From a virus (lineage: Duplodnaviria; Heunggongvirae; Uroviricota; Caudoviricetes): a DNA stretch of 7,608 bases. Below the pieces are notes generated by a model. The model saw only the letters and a program-made list of their open reading frames with translations. It searched no databases and was not told where the DNA came from. The DNA lies in IMG/VR virus record IMGVR_UViG_2703718816_000006, positions 1-7,608 of that record; one strand, given 5' to 3'. Position 1 is the stretch's first letter. Every line of letters starts with the position of its first letter. The translations under genes were made by a program, and so were the position numbers. Shown one piece after another: positions 1-7,608 of this stretch.

Positions 1-1617
1 CAGGGACATCAGGGATACCGCATTGAAGAGCGCCATCAGCGGGTCAATTTTCCCCCGTCCGCTGGCCTGTTTGGTAATAAGGATGGCGTTACCTCTGGGC
101 TCCACCCGGGCATTGCCAACGCACCAGGCCATCAGTGACTGACCACCATGCACCAGCACTCCCTCAGCCAGTTTGCGCTCGGTGGTTTTGATGGCCCCGC
201 CCAGCTTCCAGCCCTGGCTTATCCCCACCACAATTCCTTCGGGGATCCCGGCTTCTGCCAGTGAATCCAGAATCTGCCCCACACCTGACGGGTCAATACC
301 GATATGGTCCAGTAACTCAGCCTCATGAATACGACGCACATACTCCGCCACTTCCGCCGTGTCATCCCCGACCCGACGGACAATCGTCATGTCTCCACTG
401 GCCACAAAATCCTGAAACCGGGATGCTTCACTCTTCCGTCTGACCACCGCGGTTTCATGCGCCCAGGCATGGCCCCAGCCCAGCCATTCGCGGGTTTCCC
501 TGTCACGACCAATCACGTACATTCCCAGCAGATCATCCAGGCCCCCGCCGTCAATCCCCACCGTCACCACATCAGCGCGCTGCAGGATATCGTCCAGGCT
601 GACGCGCCTGCCCTGCTGCTCCCAGAAATCCGCACCCGCCCAGCGGTCAGAACGCAGGGCAAGACCAATTTCCACATTGGCGTGTTTTGACATGAAGCCA
701 CGAAATGCCTCCTCACCAGCCTCCCGGGCTTTACGGTACTCCCGATACAAAAAGGCCTCATCCACCGAATAACCGAGATTCGGGTTAACCATGGCGAGGT
801 TTTCCATCAGCAGGTGCTCACCGCGCTCCACCATCTCCGGCGGATGCTCAAATATCACCGGCAGAAAGTGCGGATCATTAATTTTGCCGTCGCGCACATC
901 CCGGGCGTACTGCAGTTTCTGTCTGAACACCCCGGCGGGCGGCTCATTCGACTGGGTGGTTGTGTACACAACAAACCCTTCCGGGCGGGAGGCAAGGCCG
1001 CCTATGGCTTCACGTAACATGTCCTCCGCTTTGTACTGCTTGCCAAACAGCCACAGTTCATCAATCAGCGTCCCCACGGACTTGATACCGGACACCGTAT
1101 TCGGATCGGCAGCCACCACCTTAAGGGTGGTGTCCGTCACCCTGTGGGTGATGGTCCGGATATGTGTCTGCACCTGACAGAGGTCATCCAGATCATCGTC
1201 CCGTCGTACCATATCCCTGGCAGGGTTGAAGGCGTTAGCCGCCACCTCCACGGTCGGGGCCAGAATGGTGTAGCCCGCCGCCTGCCGCCAGTTCAGTAAC
1301 AGCGCCGTCATCATGATCCCGGCAGCCAGCGTGGACTTGCTGTTTTTTTTGGGTATCAGAATGAACACTTCCTTTATATGGCGTATACCGGTCTGCGCAT
1401 CGTAGGAGCCAAACAGGGCCGCCACCAGGTCAAACACCCACGGTGCACAGGACTCCCCGAACGTCGGGCTGCCCGGTGCATCCACAATCCGCAGTTGTTT
1501 AAAAATCGCCAGGGCATGTGCGGCCTGCTCCGGGTAAATCGGAGCCGGAATAATCGACAGCCCCTTTTTCAGGCGCTCTGCCCAGTCCGGGCAGGCCGTG
1601 CTCCACACAGGTATCAT
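1..1617 (-). CDS. Terminase large subunit (ATPase + nuclease), partial: C-terminus lies beyond the left edge
   Basis: Manual translation from ATG at 1617..1615 gives MIPVWSTACPDWAERLKKG... and stays open to position 1 (end of window reads ...GRGKIDPLMALFNAVSLMSL). Deviant P-loop FILIPKKNSKST, Walker-B-like LIDELW, nuclease-like VGIDGGGLDD. The track omits it because there is no in-window stop. Start overlaps the TerS stop (ATGA). Confidence 0.88.
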   Translation of the reverse strand, partial: MIPVWSTACPDWAERLKKGLSIIPAPIYPEQAAHALAIFKQLRIVDAPGSPTFGESCAPWVFDLVAALFGSYDAQTGIRHIKEVFILIPKKNSKSTLAAGIMMTALLLNWRQAAGYTILAPTVEVAANAFNPARDMVRRDDDLDDLCQVQTHIRTITHRVTDTTLKVVAADPNTVSGIKSVGTLIDELWLFGKQYKAEDMLREAIGGLASRPEGFVVYTTTQSNEPPAGVFRQKLQYARDVRDGKINDPHFLPVIFEHPPEMVERGEHLLMENLAMVNPNLGYSVDEAFLYREYRKAREAGEEAFRGFMSKHANVEIGLALRSDRWAGADFWEQQGRRVSLDDILQRADVVTVGIDGGGLDDLLGMYVIGRDRETREWLGWGHAWAHETAVVRRKSEASRFQDFVASGDMTIVRRVGDDTAEVAEYVRRIHEAELLDHIGIDPSGVGQILDSLAEAGIPEGIVVGISQGWKLGGAIKTTERKLAEGVLVHGGQSLMAWCVGNARVEPRGNAILITKQASGRGKIDPLMALFNAVSLMSL

Positions 1618-2177
1618 CCGTTGCCCTCATTATCATTATTCACCACCAGGCGGGGTGGTGGTGGCACCGCAAAACGGTTAGCCGCTTTTTTCGCCGCGTC
1701 ACCTTTTGCCGATTTTTTACCGGCATCCCCTTTTTTGTGGTGCGTGAACTGCGCCAGCTTATAAGCCACATCCAGCGCCAGCCTGGGGTCGGTATTAATG
1801 TTCTCCACCAGAAGACGCCCCATCGCTTTCACCGGATCGGGAAGACCGTCCTCCATATACTCAATACCAGGAGATATCACCACGGGCGGTGGCATCTCCG
1901 GATTTGTTTCGTCCTGCTGTGGTATTGCAGCCGCCTCACGGCGACGGGGTTTATCCTCCTGCTCTGATTTTTTCTGCCGGTAAACAGGAACCTCATCCAC
2001 CTCCACCGTCTCGCACTGTTTACGGGCTATAAACGCAAGCACCTCCGGATCTTTTGCCAGCTGCGAGCCTTTAACCCTGGCTGTCTTCGCCGAATAACCG
2101 GCGGCAATGGCTGACGCTGTTTTGTTTTTCCCGGACATGAGCGCCAGCGCAAATTTTCGTTTTTGCGTTGTCAGCAC
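1614..2177 (-). CDS. Terminase small subunit
   Basis: 187-aa ORF immediately upstream of and overlapping TerL; basic, Lys/Ala-rich N-terminus typical of DNA-binding small terminases. Start is GTG at 2177 preceded by GGAGGAGG (complement of 2180..2187). Family assignment is from position and composition, not from a search. Confidence 0.75.
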   Translation of the reverse strand: MLTTQKRKFALALMSGKNKTASAIAAGYSAKTARVKGSQLAKDPEVLAFIARKQCETVEVDEVPVYRQKKSEQEDKPRRREAAAIPQQDETNPEMPPPVVISPGIEYMEDGLPDPVKAMGRLLVENINTDPRLALDVAYKLAQFTHHKKGDAGKKSAKGDAAKKAANRFAVPPPPRLVVNNDNEGNG

Positions 2178-2467
2178 AGCCTCCTCCCGGGTCCAGAACG
2201 CACTCAGCCGGGTATGGTTCAGCCCATTTTTCCCGGCGTCTCATGCCGCAAATGTTAACTGCTGCCTGGTTAACATTTGCTGAAAAAGCCTGTTAACATT
2301 TTTTCCACGCAACAAACTGAATAATAAAGATAAAAACCGAAAAAATGCCCGGGCAGCCAGTTAACATGTTAACTGCCCTGAAACGGGAATTTTTTCTCTG
2401 CGTGAGAGGGGGCGCGGTGTCCGGAGCGATCGTTTTTTACGCCGGATGATACCCCCCCCCGGTCGGG
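2178..2467. promoter_or_regulatory. Candidate cos / packaging-initiation region between HNH and TerS
   Basis: 290-bp non-coding gap in the position where HK97-like phages carry cos. Contains a GTTAACAT palindrome cluster (2248..2375), a GC-rich core cgtgagagggggcgcggtgtccggagcgatcg (2401..2432), a T6 run and a C9 homopolymer (2452..2460). Exact cos ends cannot be determined from sequence. Confidence 0.4.
2248..2375. repeat. Cluster of five GTTAACAT octamers (three direct, two inverted) in two palindromes
   Basis: Inverted repeat gcaaatgttaac-N9-gttaacatttgc (2248..2280), a further copy at 2292..2299, and the perfect 18-bp palindrome cagttaacatgttaactg (2358..2375). Confidence 0.7.
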
Positions 2468-2833
2468 TTACAGTCCGATGATGTCGTCCGCTCTGCCACT
2501 ACCTCCGGACACCTCCGGCAGCGTCGGGTCCGGCATACCACCCGCCGCTTCACGAGCAGACTTTTGTCGATGGCATTCGGTACAGAGCGTCCAGAGATTC
2601 GTCTCCTCATTACCACCACCGAACTGAAGTGCAATTCGGTGATCGAGTTCACTGTCACAGAGGTCAACCACACGACCACAGAGACAGCACTGCCCGGCGT
2701 CCCTGAGCCAGATATGACGCTTGAGGGAAACACGTGCACTGCCACTGACACGACGCTGTTCACCATTCAGAATATTCACCCGTCGGGTATTCAGTGTTTT
2801 GATTCTGCTCTGGAGTGTACGAAGCTCAGCCAT
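2468..2833 (-). CDS. HNH endonuclease (terminase-associated type)
   Basis: 121 aa with HNH signature CCLCGRVVDLCDSELDHRIALQFGGGNEETNLWTLCTECH (CxxC...DH...N...CxxCH). ATG at 2833 with GGGGA upstream. Sits directly upstream of cos/TerS as in HK97-like packaging modules. Confidence 0.85.
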   Translation of the reverse strand: MAELRTLQSRIKTLNTRRVNILNGEQRRVSGSARVSLKRHIWLRDAGQCCLCGRVVDLCDSELDHRIALQFGGGNEETNLWTLCTECHRQKSAREAAGGMPDPTLPEVSGGSGRADDIIGL

Positions 2834-2874
2834 GTAAAATCCCCGTCATATGGCAATCAGTAAAGGAAATAAAT

Positions 2875-3045
2875 ATGTCATCGAAAAACCGGACCCGCAG
2901 AACCACAACCCGCAATATCCGTTTCCCCAATCACATGATTGAACAGATCAACATCGCCCTTGAGCATAAAGGGTCCGGTAACTTTTCAGCGTGGGTTATT
3001 GAAGCCTGTCGCCGGAGACTGACAACTGACAAGAAAACATGCTAA
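2875..3045 (+). CDS. Small ribbon-helix-helix (Arc/MetJ/CopG-like) DNA-binding protein, 56 aa
   Basis: ATG at 2875 preceded by AAGGAAAT (SD about 7 nt upstream). MSSKNRTRRTTTRNIRFPNHMIEQINIALEHKGSGNFSAWVIEACRRRL fits the RHH pattern of basic N-terminus, beta-strand, helix, Gly turn, helix. Divergent from HNH (41 bp between starts). Called by motif resemblance only. Confidence 0.55.
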   Translation: MSSKNRTRRTTTRNIRFPNHMIEQINIALEHKGSGNFSAWVIEACRRRLTTDKKTC

Positions 3046-3240
3046 TCGCATAACAAGTTTAAAGAATGAGGCCAGAGGGTCGGACCGTTTCTCTGCCCCT
3101 TTATATAACTAATCTTTAACATTGCCGGCTTTACGATAACTTAAAGTTATTACCTACAGTTATTCCGAATTGAAATAATCCGTCACATAAAATAAAACAA
3201 AAGAATAATAATAATAATCTTCTACCCTTATCCAATCTTT

Positions 3241-3271
3241 ACTGCTGTGCGCCAACACAGCAGTTTTTTTT
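3241..3271 (+). terminator. Rho-independent terminator (plus strand)
   Basis: Stem ctgctgtg (3242..3249) / cacagcag (3256..3263), 6-nt loop, then T8 (3264..3271). Probably ends the RHH transcript and/or unit 1 of the AT-rich island. Confidence 0.6.
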
Positions 3272-3804
3272 GATTATGCTCACATATTTTTTATTCCCCA
3301 GCCGTGATGCACATTACACCTGTTTCTTTTCAATTCAGGCTTTTTCCAGGTATATCTGAATCTCATCCGGTGGCTTCTGCATCGTTATCAGCAAAAAATA
3401 CGGCCGCTACACTGACAAAAGCTCTCGAGAGCAGTTGCACCCATTTTTCGCTTAAAGATTCACTCAGTAAAATAAGGAGAAATTCACAATCATGTTCAGG
3501 CGGCAAACATTATAAAATTAAAACGCCAGACTTGCATAAATAATCCTATGAAGGCTGAACATACTTAAAGCAGTGTGTTATATAAGAGTAAACAACACCC
3601 TATAAAAACCTGCCCCCACACAAGGAGCCACAAAGGCAATTTTATACGCTCCAAACATTATTCAGAAAAGCTTAACAATAAGAAATATTCTTTTCGTCAT
3701 TCATCTCAACTGTCTGATGGACACCGCCCAGTCCCGCAACATGGAGCATAATAGAAGTAAATAACGTATAGTAAGTATTATAATTCAGGCTCGATTATTT
3801 CGAG

Positions 3805-3832
3805 TTGAAAACAACTCTGAAAAAATGATAAT
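3805..3832 (+). promoter_or_regulatory. Candidate sigma70 promoter (TTGAAA - 16 bp - GATAAT)
   Basis: -35 TTGAAA at 3805..3810 and -10 GATAAT at 3827..3832 with TG immediately upstream; palindrome ctcgattatttcgag (3790..3804) abuts the -35. By-eye prediction only. Confidence 0.3.
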
Positions 3833-3838
3833 AAAAAA

Positions 3839-3907
3839 ATAACAACAATACCATTCTCTTCTGCATGTGCCATCACCTGCCGTTGCTACAACCCGGCAGG
3901 TTTTTTT
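3839..3907 (+). ncRNA. Candidate small RNA (~65-70 nt) between predicted promoter and terminator
   Basis: Predicted start about 7 nt after the -10, ending at the 3876..3907 terminator; no ORF with an RBS in the interval. Purely structural inference, no homology known to me. Confidence 0.25.
3876..3907 (+). terminator. Rho-independent terminator (plus strand)
   Basis: Stem cctgccg (3876..3882) / cggcagg (3894..3900) with an 11-nt loop, followed by T7 (3901..3907). No T-run on the other strand, so unidirectional. Confidence 0.6.
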
Positions 3908-4107
3908 ATTGTCTAAACTCCAGATTCTTCCACCATCGCACCGGACTGGCGACTATGAGGGGACAACGCCGCGCTCCGTTAACGCGGTAAACCCCGGTGT
4001 GTATCGTTTTTGATTATCCCCACAAACTCTCGCAGAGGAGTCTCCCTGTCGGGCTGCGGTATCTGTTAATGCGGGAATACGGCGACGATACGGCGCATCA
4101 GCAAAAC

Positions 4108-4575
4108 TTATTTCAGACACTGAGTGCGGATATATTCCTGCGCCCCTTCCAGCTGCTTCTGCATTGTCATCAACCGTTCTCTGAGGATGAAATAATCCCA
4201 TTCAGCGGTGTCTGCCAGTCGGGGGCCGGTTGCATTATCCACGCCGGAGGTGCCGGTGGCTTCACGCACGGTACCGGAGCAGGTGGCGTTGATCCGCAGG
4301 CGCTTACGACCAGCGGCAACATCAGCACGCAGAGTTTCATTTTCAGCTCTCGCATCGGCTAATTCCCTCGAGTATCTGGCATCAAGCGCAGCAACATCAC
4401 CCTGGCGCTGCTGCATATCAGTAATAGTGGCATTCGCCAGTTTCAGCTCACTGACTTTTTTATCGCGCTGCGCTTTGTAGGTGATGGCGTTATCACGGTA
4501 ATGATTCAGCCCCAGACTAAGCACACCACAGGCTACCAGCAGGGCAATGATGACCACGCACAGAACACGGTTCAT
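4108..4575 (-). CDS. Rz: Rz i-spanin (inner-membrane spanin subunit)
   Basis: 155 aa from ATG at 4575: [40 protein letters not shown]...[20 protein letters not shown]-terminal TM helix plus coiled-coil periplasmic domain, closely resembling lambda Rz as I recall it. The track ORF extends 28 codons further upstream, judged non-coding. Confidence 0.9.
4170..4355 (-). CDS. Rz1: Rz1 o-spanin lipoprotein, embedded in Rz in an alternative frame
   Basis: 61 aa [61 protein letters not shown]: lipobox LVVSAC and Pro-rich mature region, closely resembling lambda Rz1. Lies entirely inside Rz. Confidence 0.85.
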
Positions 4576-4674
4576 ATCACCACCAACGGATTGCCCAGAC
4601 CAGAACAGCAATGGCCACAATACGAATGGAAAATGCCATTGCCCGAATAAATTCAGCACTCATCTTTTTAAAGT

Positions 4675-4857
4675 TCACGATTTCAGCGCAATGACCAGTT
4701 TTGCCAGCCCATACAGCATCGGAGACACAGCGATACCAACCGCCACCCACTTAATAGCAAAAGCCAGCGCTCTGCTGATGTCATCAGTTACTGGCGCTTT
4801 CAGTTCAAGGCCGTTTTTCATAGTCAACCTCAACAGAATTCGTTTATACTTTTCCAT
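4675..4857 (-). CDS. Hypothetical small membrane protein (60 aa; alternative start at 4821 gives 48 aa)
   Basis: ATG at 4857 preceded by AGGGAG; alternative ATG at 4821 preceded by GAGG. One C-terminal hydrophobic helix ALAFAIKWVAVGIAVSPMLYGLAKLVIAL. Sits between endolysin and Rz; no family recognised. Confidence 0.4.
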   Translation of the reverse strand: MEKYKRILLRLTMKNGLELKAPVTDDISRALAFAIKWVAVGIAVSPMLYGLAKLVIALKS

Positions 4858-4894
4858 GTTCTCCCTTGCCTTATCCAAGGTCAGAAACACAAAA

Positions 4895-4924
4895 CCCCGC
4901 TTGCTGCCAACAAACGGGGTTTTT
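4895..4924. terminator. Hairpin with T-runs on both sides (bidirectional terminator-like)
   Basis: Stem ccccgcttg (4895..4903) / caaacgggg (4911..4919), 8 of 9 bp, 7-nt loop, then T5 on the plus strand and TTTTGTGTT on the minus strand. Between the endolysin stop and the small membrane gene. Confidence 0.4.
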
Positions 4925-5013
4925 ACTTTTATTCACTTAGGTTTTGCCAGTTCGCAGGATTTCGTGTTATCCGCCCGCGTTGGCCAACGTCATTTTTCAG
5001 CAAAATATTCTGC

Positions 5014-5547
5014 TTATCTGTCGACTCCCCAGCACGCCAGCGCACTCTCCTGGTCGCGACGGGATACCTGACCGTAGCAATTATTTGAGCGAATACGGCA
5101 GTCTCTGCCACCGTCCTTAATCCACCAGCGAATCGCTTCACACGCTCCCCTGCGATCGCCTGCATTAATTCGTTTATAAAACGTCGACGGGAAACACTTA
5201 CCGGGGCCAATGTTGTACGGACAGAATGACGCGATCCCCGCTTTCTGGGGTTCGCTCAATGGCACTTTGATGTTTTTCTCCACCCATGCCAGCGCCTTAT
5301 CACGCTCAATGGCGTTAACCCGGTCGCATTTTCCCTTCGACAGCTTCATGCCAGGAATAACAGGCTTACCATCCACCCGGGTGGCTCCACGGCAGATGGT
5401 CCAGATCCCCGCACCATCACGGTATGCCGTGGTGTGGTTACCTTCTTTTTCGTCAAGAAACTGGTCGAGGATTTCAGGCGCAGACGCCCCTGCACCAATC
5501 AGCGCCAGAACGGCAGCCGACAGGCCGTATCGGATTTTTGCGTTCAT
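5014..5547 (-). CDS. R: SAR endolysin (T4-lysozyme-like / GH24 muramidase with signal-anchor-release N-terminus)
   Basis: 177 aa. Catalytic motif E-x8-D-x5-T in DEKEGNHTTAYRDGAGIWTICRGAT; N-terminus MNAKIRYGLSAAVLALIGAGASA is a Gly/Ala-rich weakly hydrophobic helix typical of SAR domains. No strong SD upstream of the ATG at 5547. Confidence 0.85.
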   Translation of the reverse strand: MNAKIRYGLSAAVLALIGAGASAPEILDQFLDEKEGNHTTAYRDGAGIWTICRGATRVDGKPVIPGMKLSKGKCDRVNAIERDKALAWVEKNIKVPLSEPQKAGIASFCPYNIGPGKCFPSTFYKRINAGDRRGACEAIRWWIKDGGRDCRIRSNNCYGQVSRRDQESALACWGVDR

Positions 5548-5675
5548 GGATATTTATCAGGATTTATCGGTTCCGGCCCCCTGGATATGTTAAGTCTTCA
5601 GCCTGCCAGTGGTGGGCACTGGCGTTTTATCTGCTGGCTGAAAATATATCTGACAATTCCAGTCGAGGATTAACC

Positions 5676-5990
5676 ATGCATAACCATCAACATAATTATG
5701 ATTTATACCTGCAAGCCATAAATGAGCGGGTAAAATCGGAATGCCTTTTACTCCTCCTGCAAGAACACGAAGCAGTAAAGGCCATTCAGGCTGAACCGTA
5801 TGGAGCTCTCACTACTGCAACTCTCAGTATTATATCCGGAGCATTAACACCAACCTTGCTCCTTCGCCTGAAAGACAATATAGATGACTGGTTAAACGAA
5901 GAATTAAACTACCTTGAATGTGAGTGGGATCATCATTACGCCAAATCACAAAAAGAACGCATCTTCCGTCGATTATCCGGCAACAGATAA
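5676..5990 (+). CDS. Hypothetical protein, 104 aa, convergent with the 213-aa gene
   Basis: ATG at 5676 preceded by GAGGA (5665..5669). Protein-like composition, no TM segment, AT-richer than the flanking phage genes. The track ORF 5424..5990 extends upstream into the endolysin gene on the opposite strand; the internal start is preferred. No family recognised. Confidence 0.45.
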   Translation: MHNHQHNYDLYLQAINERVKSECLLLLLQEHEAVKAIQAEPYGALTTATLSIISGALTPTLLLRLKDNIDDWLNEELNYLECEWDHHYAKSQKERIFRRLSGNR

Positions 5991-5999
5991 CGAGCCAGC

Positions 6000-6641
6000 T
6001 TATATACGTCCTTTAAGATAAGTCAGTCCGGGATGAAACCAGTAAGCCGGCACTTTTTTAAAGGGCGGATTATCAAAATCACGAAGAAGAGCCTCCCGCA
6101 CAACTGCATCCTTGTCCGCACCACTGGCCAGCGCTTCAATCTCAGCAGCTACCTGCAGATATCCCATGCAACGACCAATGCGCTGCATCAGCCCCTGCTT
6201 TTTATTGTTCTTCAGGTAATCAATGGCAAATTCAGTGAGCGCCTCACTGTGCTGGTGCGATGCCGGTGTTACTTTCCCATCTTCACGGATCGTGATATTC
6301 CAGTCATCGCTGCTCACAATAAAAGATGGCCGATTACACTCCCATTCCTGGTCTTTATCCGGTGCAGACGCAATAAAATAACGTTTATTGCCTTCCTCTC
6401 CGGCACTTTTAACCGTAATGGAGTACTTTTCTGACAATGCGGTCGGTAAAAACTTTTCCTGCAAAATATTCGCAAAGGTCCTGCGAGCAATTTTGATGCA
6501 ATCATCGTAAAACGCCGCAAACTGCTCATCGCGGCGTTTTTTTGCATCTTCAGAAGGCATCAGCGCCGACAGTTTTTTATTCAGTTCAGCAATTTCATTT
6601 TCCAGACGACTTATGCGCCGATTCATTTCTTCATGCTTCAT
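6000..6641 (-). CDS. Hypothetical protein, 213 aa, translationally coupled to the holin
   Basis: ATG at 6641 lies 3 nt after the holin stop (TAG at 6647..6645) with GGGGAGAG inside the holin 3' end. N-terminal coiled-coil-like segment RRISRLENEIAELNKKLSAL, soluble, no motif I recognise. Inserted where phage-21-type cassettes have holin and endolysin adjacent. Confidence 0.6.
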   Translation of the reverse strand: MKHEEMNRRISRLENEIAELNKKLSALMPSEDAKKRRDEQFAAFYDDCIKIARRTFANILQEKFLPTALSEKYSITVKSAGEEGNKRYFIASAPDKDQEWECNRPSFIVSSDDWNITIREDGKVTPASHQHSEALTEFAIDYLKNNKKQGLMQRIGRCMGYLQVAAEIEALASGADKDAVVREALLRDFDNPPFKKVPAYWFHPGLTYLKGRI

Positions 6642-6644
6642 TAT

Positions 6645-6860
6645 CTACTCTCCCCGGGCCGCCTTACGCCGGTCTTCTTTAATTTTGAAATACAGGTTAG
6701 TCAGATACGTCAGCAGACCAAACAGCAGACTCCCCAGCACGCCTATTGCCGCCCACTGAGACGGGGAAACCCTGTCCAGCAGCTGCAGGAACCAGTAGCC
6801 CGTCCCCACCGCTGACGTGGTGTATGACACACCTGTTGTGATTTTTTCCATCTGGTACAT
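6645..6860 (-). CDS. S: Class II holin of the phage 21 S21 pinholin type, with dual-start motif
   Basis: 71 aa [71 protein letters not shown]: two TM segments, charged C-terminus, Met1/Met4 dual start (antiholin/holin). Closely resembles S21 as I recall it; GGGAGA upstream. Confidence 0.88.
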
Positions 6861-6935
6861 ATCCCGTCTCCCGCAATCCGGAAGCTCACAACAACAAGAG
6901 GGGCATCAGCTCACACCGACAGCCCCTGCGCATGG

Positions 6936-7205
6936 TTACATCATCATTTCGCCGTCAGGCTGAGGCTCACTGCCACCATCAGGCTGAGACACGACACCAT
7001 CTGAAACAGCACTGTCACCCGCACCGTCTTCAGGCCCGGGAGCAGCCGTTACCCCCAGCAGTTCATCCAGAATGGCATCCACTTCAGCATCAAGACGCGC
7101 CTCAAGATTCTGGCGGAGTTGCTGTTTCAGTACGCTTCTGACTTCTTCAGAGCGCAGGACTTCCTTCACTGCTTCAGCAGTGACCAGCGGTTTTATTTCT
7201 GACAT
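6936..7205 (-). CDS. Hypothetical acidic protein, 89 aa
   Basis: ATG at 7205 preceded by a weak SD (GAGAAAATACC). MSEIKPLVTAEAVKEVLRSEEVRSVLKQQLRQNLEARLDAEVDAILDELLG... then an acidic Gly/Pro/Asp-rich tail. The track ORF 6936..7319 is an upstream extension overlapping the next gene and is rejected. No family recognised. Confidence 0.4.
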   Translation of the reverse strand: MSEIKPLVTAEAVKEVLRSEEVRSVLKQQLRQNLEARLDAEVDAILDELLGVTAAPGPEDGAGDSAVSDGVVSQPDGGSEPQPDGEMMM

Positions 7206-7242
7206 GGTATTTTCTCGTTGAAAGGTGTTGTTAAGAAAGTTG

Positions 7243-7425
7243 CTACGGAATGAGAGGCTCTTCGGGTTTTGTTCCGGCTGACTGACTGGCGCTGATTTTC
7301 TCAGCGGCCCTTTTGTCAATCTGTCTGCGCCAGAAATCTCTCACGACTCTGTACCCACCAGAAAGAAGATACAGCACACAAACTGCTGTACAGAAATACA
7401 ATAAAATAAGCTGTATAAATGTCAT
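7243..7425 (-). CDS. Hypothetical small membrane protein, 60 aa
   Basis: ATG at 7425 preceded by GGAG (spacing about 7). N-terminal TM helix FIQLILLYFCTAVCVLYLL followed by a basic tail. Upstream of the holin in the same orientation. Confidence 0.45.
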   Translation of the reverse strand: MTFIQLILLYFCTAVCVLYLLSGGYRVVRDFWRRQIDKRAAEKISASQSAGTKPEEPLIP

Positions 7426-7519
7426 TATTCATCTCCATTATTGACATGGTTAATGCCTGCCAGTAAAAAACTCCTGCATTTTTTGCTCAGCATATTTTTG
7501 CTAAGGATGTAGCGACCTC

Positions 7520-7568
7520 TGCCGCCGGTTCTGGCTCCTTGTTTTCCCTGCCCCGGCGGCATTTTTTT
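7520..7568 (+). terminator. Terminator-like hairpin plus T7 on the plus strand
   Basis: 9-bp GC-rich stem tgccgccgg (7520..7528) / ccggcggca (7553..7561) with a long 24-nt loop, then T7 (7562..7568). No T-run on the minus strand. Function unclear; may belong to the late promoter/regulatory region. Confidence 0.3.
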
Positions 7569-7608
7569 ATCCTGCTTACGCGTTATTCACTTCCACTGTT
7601 ATACTTTC

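Follow-up and report, generated by a model that had tools for sequence, protein, structure and literature searches.

Two small genes between nanS-p and the pinholin gene of a lambdoid Escherichia coli prophage are members of the catalogued families DUF1378 and DUF826

Accessory regulators of lysis timing are exemplified by the T4 antiholins RI and RIII and by the S21-71 antiholin. Within the late region of Shiga toxin (Stx) phages, open reading frames (ORFs) encoding DUF826 and DUF1378 proteins have been noted between nanS-p and the holin gene S of Stx2a phages (PMC10462455); our literature search on DUF1378 and DUF826 returned only one descriptive mention, and nothing past the naming of the domains. 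Two other products of this region have been described: (i) in the Stx phage phi24B, NanS-p (gp84) is part of the virion, where it decorates the capsid and is attached via DUF1737 (bioRxiv 10.64898/2026.04.10.717836); and (ii) PasA and PasC are experimentally verified Hfq-dependent small RNAs (sRNAs) of enteropathogenic E. coli (EPEC) prophages, encoded on the opposite strand in the interval from the sialate esterase gene to the holin gene (Pearl Mizrahi 2021, PMC8550237; Zhu, Shabalina and Storz 2026 preprint). Here we describe two small genes at the corresponding position in a stretch of 7,608 nucleotides (nt), referred to below as the window, which comprises positions 1 to 7,608 of the IMG/VR record IMGVR_UViG_2703718816_000006. 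The window derives from a lambdoid E. coli prophage, and its identity to the chromosomes of the bovine isolates OkiPb01678 and OkiPb01712 is 99.8%. An earlier note, made from the sequence of the window alone, had placed the two genes in tandem directly upstream of the holin gene and on the same strand, an arrangement that we confirmed: the pair, the holin gene and the other genes that bear on the finding all lie on the minus strand. The two genes are as follows (lengths in amino acids, aa):

7243–7425, minus strand: DUF1378 gene; 60 aa, predicted bitopic inner-membrane protein (evidence: PF07125, phrog_494, and the ratio of nonsynonymous to synonymous substitution rates, dN/dS)
6936–7205, minus strand: DUF826 gene; 89 aa, acidic, predicted cytoplasmic protein (evidence: PF05696, phrog_311, AlphaFold2 model, codon-position variability and dN/dS)

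The same note had found no family for either protein, which proved to be wrong, as both match Pfam profiles over essentially their whole extent. The 60-aa protein matches DUF1378 (PF07125) with an E value of 1.4e-37 and 128.1 bits (cut-off 25), residues 1–59 aligning to positions 1–59 of the 59-position profile, while the 89-aa protein matches DUF826 (PF05696) with an E value of 1.9e-32 and 111.6 bits (cut-off 25), residues 1–73 aligning to positions 1–73 of 75. The corresponding PHROG families are phrog_494 and phrog_311, and the function of all four families is unknown. In the E. coli chromosome of 99.8% identity, RefSeq labels the products 'DUF1378 family protein' and 'DUF826 domain-containing protein'. 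By these matches, which far exceed chance, both genes are ordinary members of catalogued, uncharacterised families and were already known. The finding is thus a re-identification of two DUF families and adds no new kind of element.

Both families are narrowly distributed. The pair occurs in about 306–307 records of the phage collection, nearly all of them Stx-converting phages (933W, VT2-Sakai and Min27 among them), so that the novelty that the earlier note had left to homology searches gives way to conserved, known late-region proteins. Word-indexed searches on both families returned Escherichia and Shigella entries only, and an exhaustive profile search of 1.8 billion representatives returned 54 proteins, which marks the families as narrow. 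When one genome per species was scanned, DUF1378 patterns were found only in Cedecea neteri and in a decayed locus of Escherichia ruysiae, and DUF826 patterns matched nothing. Of the further searches that the note had proposed, those by homology gave the family matches above, and those by structure, run against PDB and BFVD, gave none: Foldseek with the DUF826 model yielded 0 matches in PDB and none below an E value of 0.6 in BFVD, and profile searches of both families against PDB sequences yielded nothing below 0.3. Neither PADLOC nor NCBIfam searches of the pair gave a match, nor did comparison of DUF1378 and DUF826 with the Pfam and PHROG holin families.

The locus agrees with that of the Stx phages 933W, VT2-Sakai, Min27 and P13374 in its two Pfam families, in the order and spacing of the genes and in the esterase and pinholin genes that flank the pair, and nucleotide identity to these phages is 80–95% over about 750–800 nt. 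However, this prophage carries no stx genes, and tRNA genes and then nanS-p follow the Q gene in the source locus. The DUF826 protein of Min27 has 81 aa, as opposed to 89 aa here, where the tail variant ends in MMM.

The earlier note's physical description of the two proteins held in full: a single transmembrane segment for the 60-aa protein, and an acidic composition with a helical N-terminal half for the 89-aa protein. The DUF1378 gene begins with ATG, and a Shine–Dalgarno sequence, GGAGA (7432–7436), lies 6 nt 5′ of it. Residues 3–21 of the product are strongly hydrophobic (Kyte–Doolittle 2.41) and are followed by the basic segment RVVRDFWRRQIDKRAAEK; the isoelectric point (pI) is 9.18, and the AlphaFold2 model is one continuous helix from residue 2 to residue 49. 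The predicted topology is a transmembrane segment at about residues 3–25, oriented N-out/C-in and followed by a basic helix next to the membrane and a short proline-rich end, the C-terminus being placed in the cytoplasm by the positive-inside rule. Residues S22, G23, G24 and Y25 (SGGY motif) are invariant in the family alignment. DUF826, with 19 D and E residues against 7 K and R, has a pI of 4.06, and AlphaFold2 places helices at residues 10–17 and 20–49 (predicted local distance difference test scores 88–98) and a disordered tail at residues 57–82. Its N-domain (aa 1–51) is conserved and helical, whereas the tail is variable, acidic and proline-rich with a hydrophobic end; of the 38 invariant alignment columns, all except A62 fall in aa 1–51.

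That these are the correct coding frames, a point on which the earlier note had allowed for error, is upheld by codon-position variability, which was measured on an alignment of 68 distinct related sequences. The values for codon positions 1, 2 and 3 are as follows:

DUF1378 (60-aa) frame: 0.045, 0.034 and 0.122
DUF826 N-domain: 0.020, 0.017 and 0.102
upstream extension of the DUF826 frame: 0.071, 0.067 and 0.042

The third-position excess that is a sign of coding is thus seen in the DUF1378 frame and in the DUF826 N-domain, but not in the upstream extension. Pairwise dN/dS is 0.09–0.23 for DUF1378 and 0.09–0.28 for the DUF826 N-domain, apart from one comparison with a Mu-like sequence (0.45). 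By these patterns of substitution, both genes are under purifying selection and are shown to be two separate protein-coding genes of the families DUF1378 and DUF826. It is extremely improbable that the true coding unit is instead one extended ORF of the DUF826 frame, overlapping DUF1378, as in the single 148-aa hypothetical ORF ST933Wp43 that RefSeq gives for 933W (NC_000924.1 25307–25753, locus L255). Such a reading can draw on the program-made ORF list, in which the DUF826 ORF begins at TTG 7319 and has 127 aa, on the fact that in most relatives the frame is open even further upstream, into the 60-aa gene, and on deposited forms of 128–154 aa, which are included in phrog_8301. However, because the codon-position pattern and dN/dS favor the DUF1378 frame over the extension, and because the Pfam DUF826 profile begins precisely at Met 7205, we consider the long ORF an annotation artefact and rejected the extended form of 127–148 aa. 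The ST933Wp43 annotation is, on the same comparisons, probably a misannotation that has spread to phrog_8301 and to several deposited proteins.

The pair is enclosed by an esterase gene and a holin gene, with a hairpin between DUF826 and the latter:

7576–7608, minus strand: 3′ end only of a NanS-p-type esterase gene (domains DUF1737-SASA-DUF6645; L001 annotation and Pfam), with the stop codon TAA at 7578–7576
6887–6927, minus strand: terminator-like hairpin between the DUF826 stop codon and the holin gene; fold AGGGGC..GCCCCU, then CUUGUUGUUGUG
6645–6860, minus strand: phage-21 S-type class II holin (pinholin) gene; PF04971, E value 7.2e-33; Met1/Met4 dual start; RefSeq 'class II holin family protein'

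The source prophage carries, in this order, Q, a helix-turn-helix-domain gene, two hypothetical ORFs, three tRNA genes, the gene for a 644-aa NanS-p-type esterase, DUF1378, DUF826 and S. Q lies about 5 kb upstream of the pair, so that the slot between Q and S to which the genes had been assigned is the correct one. Downstream of the holin gene follow a 213-aa ORF, a lysozyme gene whose product has a hydrophobic N-terminus resembling a signal-anchor-release (SAR) sequence, Rz/Rz1, an HNH endonuclease gene and terminase genes.

We determined that the association of the pair with nanS-p is very regular. Among the loci recovered via DUF1378, 82 of the 83 with enough upstream DNA have a NanS-p-type gene about 150 nt upstream, and both small genes are present in all 72 close NanS-p relatives whose downstream DNA extends far enough, 12 of these relatives lacking a holin gene. 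The lambdoid loci with enough DNA all have the order DUF1378, DUF826, S21 holin, SAR-type lysozyme and Rz/Rz1, and even the distant lambdoid relatives L119 and L173 retain the trio of NanS-p, DUF1378 and DUF826. Those holin-less loci that were examined, L085 and L198, belong to Mu-like prophages; here a NanS variant and the pair lie between the tail-fibre/invertase (gin) genes and com/mom. This unit, nanS-p, DUF1378, DUF826 and hairpin, is found at the right end of the prophage and is much diverged, the identity of DUF1378 being about 60% and that of the DUF826 N-domain about 53%. An obligatory linkage of the pair to the holin was rejected, as the Mu-like loci carry the pair without one. The esterase of L198 (531–2585) lacks the capsid-binding DUF1737, the N-terminus of the L085 esterase (2740–4872) does not align to the esterase of the window, and in each the N-terminal region, some 110 aa, is a different one, suggesting that the Mu-like esterases attach to another virion site, or to none.

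Identity values for DUF1378 show no correlation with those for the catalytic domain (rho 0.02) or the C-terminal domain (rho −0.18) of NanS-p, but they do correlate with those for DUF826 (rho 0.45); judged by these values, the parts of the trio recombine independently.

Conversely, many loci do without one or both of the small genes. The prophages PP2 and PP5 of EPEC E2348/69 encode a NanS-p of matching architecture (56% identity) and lack the pair. In PP2, NanS-p is followed by a 447-nt non-coding spacer and then by an S21-type holin gene (91.5% identity), and in PP5 two insertion sequence elements precede the holin gene; tblastn detected no trace of DUF1378 or DUF826 in PP2, and the annotation of PP5 includes neither. 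The PP2-type spacer is present in 29 phage records, phage 434 included, Stx1a phages combine NanS-p with the same holin and lack the pair, and the DLP12 prophage of K-12 has the S21-type essD and neither small gene. Across the phage collection, 347 records contain NanS-p, as compared with 307 that contain DUF826. An obligatory linkage of NanS-p to the pair was likewise rejected, given the presence of NanS-p without the pair in PP2, PP5 and phage 434. Because phage 434, Stx1a phages, the EPEC prophages and DLP12 do without it, the pair is dispensable both for NanS-p and for pinholin lysis.

Each family also occurs alone. In Salmonella prophages, solo DUF826 genes (E value 1.8e-20) that lack the acidic tail lie between Rz/Rz1 and terS, with no NanS-p or DUF1378 gene nearby; examples are L122 (5052–5240), L163 (5052–5234) and Fels-1 (NC_010391.1 15793–15900), with about 45 further IMG/VR loci. 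The lysis cassette beside these genes comprises a class II HP1-type holin, a SAR-like lysozyme and Rz/Rz1. In Cedecea neteri, DUF1378 stands alone after tail-fibre genes, without NanS-p. All of these positions are module junctions where accessory genes gather.

A consensus scan for sigma-70-type promoters on the gene strand found only sites that overlap or follow the DUF1378 start codon, none of which gives a leadered mRNA, and a GC-rich hairpin in the spacer between nanS-p and DUF1378 has no U-run in the sense direction. Since no promoter of its own was detected, the pair is probably read through from nanS-p and pR′ as part of the Q-dependent late operon, and would be made late, together with the lysis proteins. 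Among 80 distinct downstream sequences, most have a hairpin at the position following DUF826, in all three contexts and with differing stems; in many relatives it ends in a canonical T-run, for example GGGACCATCGG..CCGGTGGTC-TTTTTTATTG, while the U-tract of the hairpin in the window is degenerate. Such a hairpin would shield the holin gene from read-through in the lysogen. A comparable sense-strand terminator also precedes S at loci without the pair.

The reading that we favor, to which we would give a probability of roughly 0.3, is that the pair is a non-essential modulator of the membrane-dependent lysis step, made up of a membrane-anchored peptide and an acidic cytoplasmic partner. DUF1378 would insert into the inner membrane, and the acidic surface and tail of DUF826 would bind either the basic cytoplasmic helix of DUF1378 or the similarly basic C-terminus of the pinholin. 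Together, the two proteins would tune the timing of pinholin triggering and of SAR-endolysin release, by a logic analogous to that of accessory antiholin or pro-holin factors. Several observations are in keeping with such a role: (i) the pair lies in the late operon without a detected promoter, and at all lambdoid loci with enough DNA it is syntenic with the lysis cassette, which the solo DUF826 of Salmonella also adjoins; (ii) DUF1378 has the general build of a holin or antiholin, one transmembrane domain and a charged cytoplasmic C-terminus; and (iii) the basic C-terminus of the pinholin contrasts with the strongly acidic DUF826. The pair resembles the T4 RI and RIII and S21-71 antiholins in being small, late, helical, membrane-anchored or cytoplasmic, non-essential and encoded with or near the holin gene. 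However, the likeness is one of presumed working only, as there is no similarity of sequence or fold, and in Mu-like prophages the pair is found at a distance from lysis genes.

A number of results weigh against this reading. The literature offers domain names and no function for the pair, and the Foldseek, PDB sequence, PADLOC and NCBIfam searches were without result. In Mu-like prophages, gin and com/mom enclose the pair together with nanS-p, a long way from any lysis gene, and the S21-type cassettes of DLP12 (essD), phage 434 and EPEC PP2 work without the pair. Since DUF1378 occurs alone in Cedecea neteri and DUF826 alone in Salmonella, a physical partnership of the two is not obligatory. 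Furthermore, as all positions are accessory-gene junctions, adjacency to the holin gene may be functionally meaningless. More doubtful is the extended form of the lysis reading, in which the pair would be an unrecognised two-protein module that sets pinholin and SAR-endolysin timing in Stx-type phages, and hence the release of Shiga toxin and NanS-p, its leader possibly being controlled by a Pas-like antisense sRNA.

Alternatively, the two proteins might serve as accessory factors of the NanS-p esterase, in its folding, processing, localisation or attachment, which we consider unlikely. The synteny counts (82 of 83 and 72 of 72, including the 12 Mu-like loci without a holin gene) speak for such a role, as do the persistence of the trio in spite of the independent recombination of its parts and the fact that NanS-p is a structural decoration protein (bioRxiv 10.64898/2026.04.10.717836). 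Yet NanS-p of the same architecture lacks the pair in PP2, PP5 and the 29 phage records that include phage 434, the phage collection has more records with NanS-p than with DUF826, and the converse also holds, DUF826 in Salmonella prophages and DUF1378 in Cedecea occurring without NanS-p. In addition, the DUF826 and DUF1378 peptide strings searched for did not turn up in the part of the phi24B virion proteome table that was covered, and a capsid protein would not be expected to have a membrane-anchored partner.

The earlier note had pointed to morons as frequent occupants of this slot in lambdoid phages, and it is possible, if improbable, that the two genes are lysogenic-conversion cargo expressed from the prophage, with a role at the host membrane such as superinfection exclusion or a contribution to host fitness, unrelated to lysis or to NanS-p. 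Small single-pass membrane proteins, such as HK97 gp15, are typical exclusion factors. The pair is dispensable and occupies classical accessory slots (Q–S in lambdoid phages, gin–com in Mu-like phages and Rz–terS for solo DUF826), and the terminator-like hairpin that follows DUF826 across lineages, which would shield S in the lysogen, fits such a role. The pair thus shares with morons and lysogenic-conversion genes of the Q–S region (stx, nanS-p and the logic of lambda bor and lom) an accessory slot, a following hairpin, dispensability and mosaic occurrence. However, the consensus scan found no sigma-70-type promoter for the pair, such as a moron would need; moreover, the hairpin before S is not specific to the pair, and PADLOC gave no match.

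In the 150-nt spacer between nanS-p and DUF1378, we identified a candidate antisense sRNA gene on the basis of promoter and terminator elements, conservation and covariation:

7441–7570, plus strand: candidate antisense sRNA gene
7441–7446, plus strand: −35 element TTGACA (consensus)
7464–7469, plus strand: −10 element TAAAAA, 17 nt from the −35 element
7476–7570, plus strand: body of about 95 nt, starting near 7476
7521–7528 and 7553–7560, plus strand: 8-bp GC hairpin of the terminator, with T7 at 7562–7568, abutting the esterase stop codon

These elements are retained in nearly all of 43 distinct spacers, lambdoid and Mu-like, while the sequence of the body varies, and compensatory changes are found in five of the eight pairs of the stem. 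The fold z-score of the spacer on the sense strand is −2.8. No Rfam family reached its gathering score over the spacer in the eleven related loci scanned, and PasA and PasC were not detected there; both appear to be absent from Rfam. Esr41 (RF02676) gave a weak full-length match below threshold (23.2 bits against a gathering score of 102), and Esr41 itself is encoded in SpLE1 (PMC5286369). Assignment of the spacer RNA to Esr41 was rejected, as that RNA lies in SpLE1, as was assignment to AsxR or STnc100, both of which are located upstream of nanS-p, and to PasA, which lacks BLAST similarity to the spacer of the window.

By position, the candidate is an analogue of PasA and PasC: like these, it is antisense to the late operon, would start in the spacer between esterase and holin genes and would end at an intrinsic terminator directly beside the stop codon of the esterase gene. 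It differs in that PasA has no BLAST-level similarity to the spacer of the window, and PasA-type spacers, unlike this locus, are not accompanied by DUF1378 and DUF826. Directly upstream of nanS-p, Min27 and 933W carry two known sRNA genes back to back, AsxR on the antisense strand and STnc100 on the sense strand (L002 8999–9258 and L255 5101–5351). With these upstream and the spacer candidate downstream, the esterase gene would be flanked by small-RNA genes on both sides.

The presence of this candidate raises the very unlikely case that DUF1378 is a membrane peptide of the type I toxin kind, its mRNA leader being targeted by the spacer antisense RNA. With its 60 aa, N-terminal transmembrane segment and charged tail, DUF1378 resembles type I toxins, the conserved candidate overlaps the DUF1378 leader of read-through transcripts, and the antisense −35 element is 16–21 nt from the DUF1378 start codon; however, the candidate RNA covers neither the Shine–Dalgarno sequence nor the start codon, the position-equivalent PasA and PasC occur at loci without DUF1378 and act in trans via Hfq, and DUF826 would have no role in such a scheme.

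Further features of the window and its relatives were observed outside the pair. Between the holin and endolysin genes, the 213-aa ORF (6000–6641, minus strand; phrog_1085, no Pfam match) has a coiled-coil-like N-terminus, and beside it lies a convergent 104-aa ORF (5676–5990, plus strand; phrog_1853). This insert is present, absent or different across related loci and constitutes a variable cassette that separates S from R. Between the endolysin gene and Rz, a 60–71-aa ORF (4674–4890, minus strand) without a family match encodes a C-terminal transmembrane segment, and Salmonella prophages with solo DUF826 have a 45-aa ORF for a C-terminally anchored protein at the equivalent position (L122 4223–4360). 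Positions 3046–4107, between the YlcI/YnfO gene and Rz, comprise about 1 kb without annotated genes or long ORFs; this region is AT-rich (GC content 0.38–0.42, as compared with 0.5–0.6 elsewhere) and gave no Rfam match. The source prophage may be defective, as its portal gene (L001 7321–9743, beyond the window) carries a frameshift according to the annotation.

What the analysis adds to the two catalogued families is that the pair accompanies nanS-p in phages of two unrelated backbones, although neither NanS-p nor the pinholin requires it; that the two-gene reading is correct and the 148-aa ORF of 933W probably misannotated; and that the upstream spacer holds a conserved candidate antisense sRNA gene. 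Few uncharacterised ORFs in the late region of Stx phages are conserved as consistently as these two genes, which lie between the toxin and esterase genes and the lysis cassette by which toxin and esterase are released. If the pair does affect lysis timing or virion decoration, it would have a bearing on toxin release by Shiga toxin-producing E. coli.

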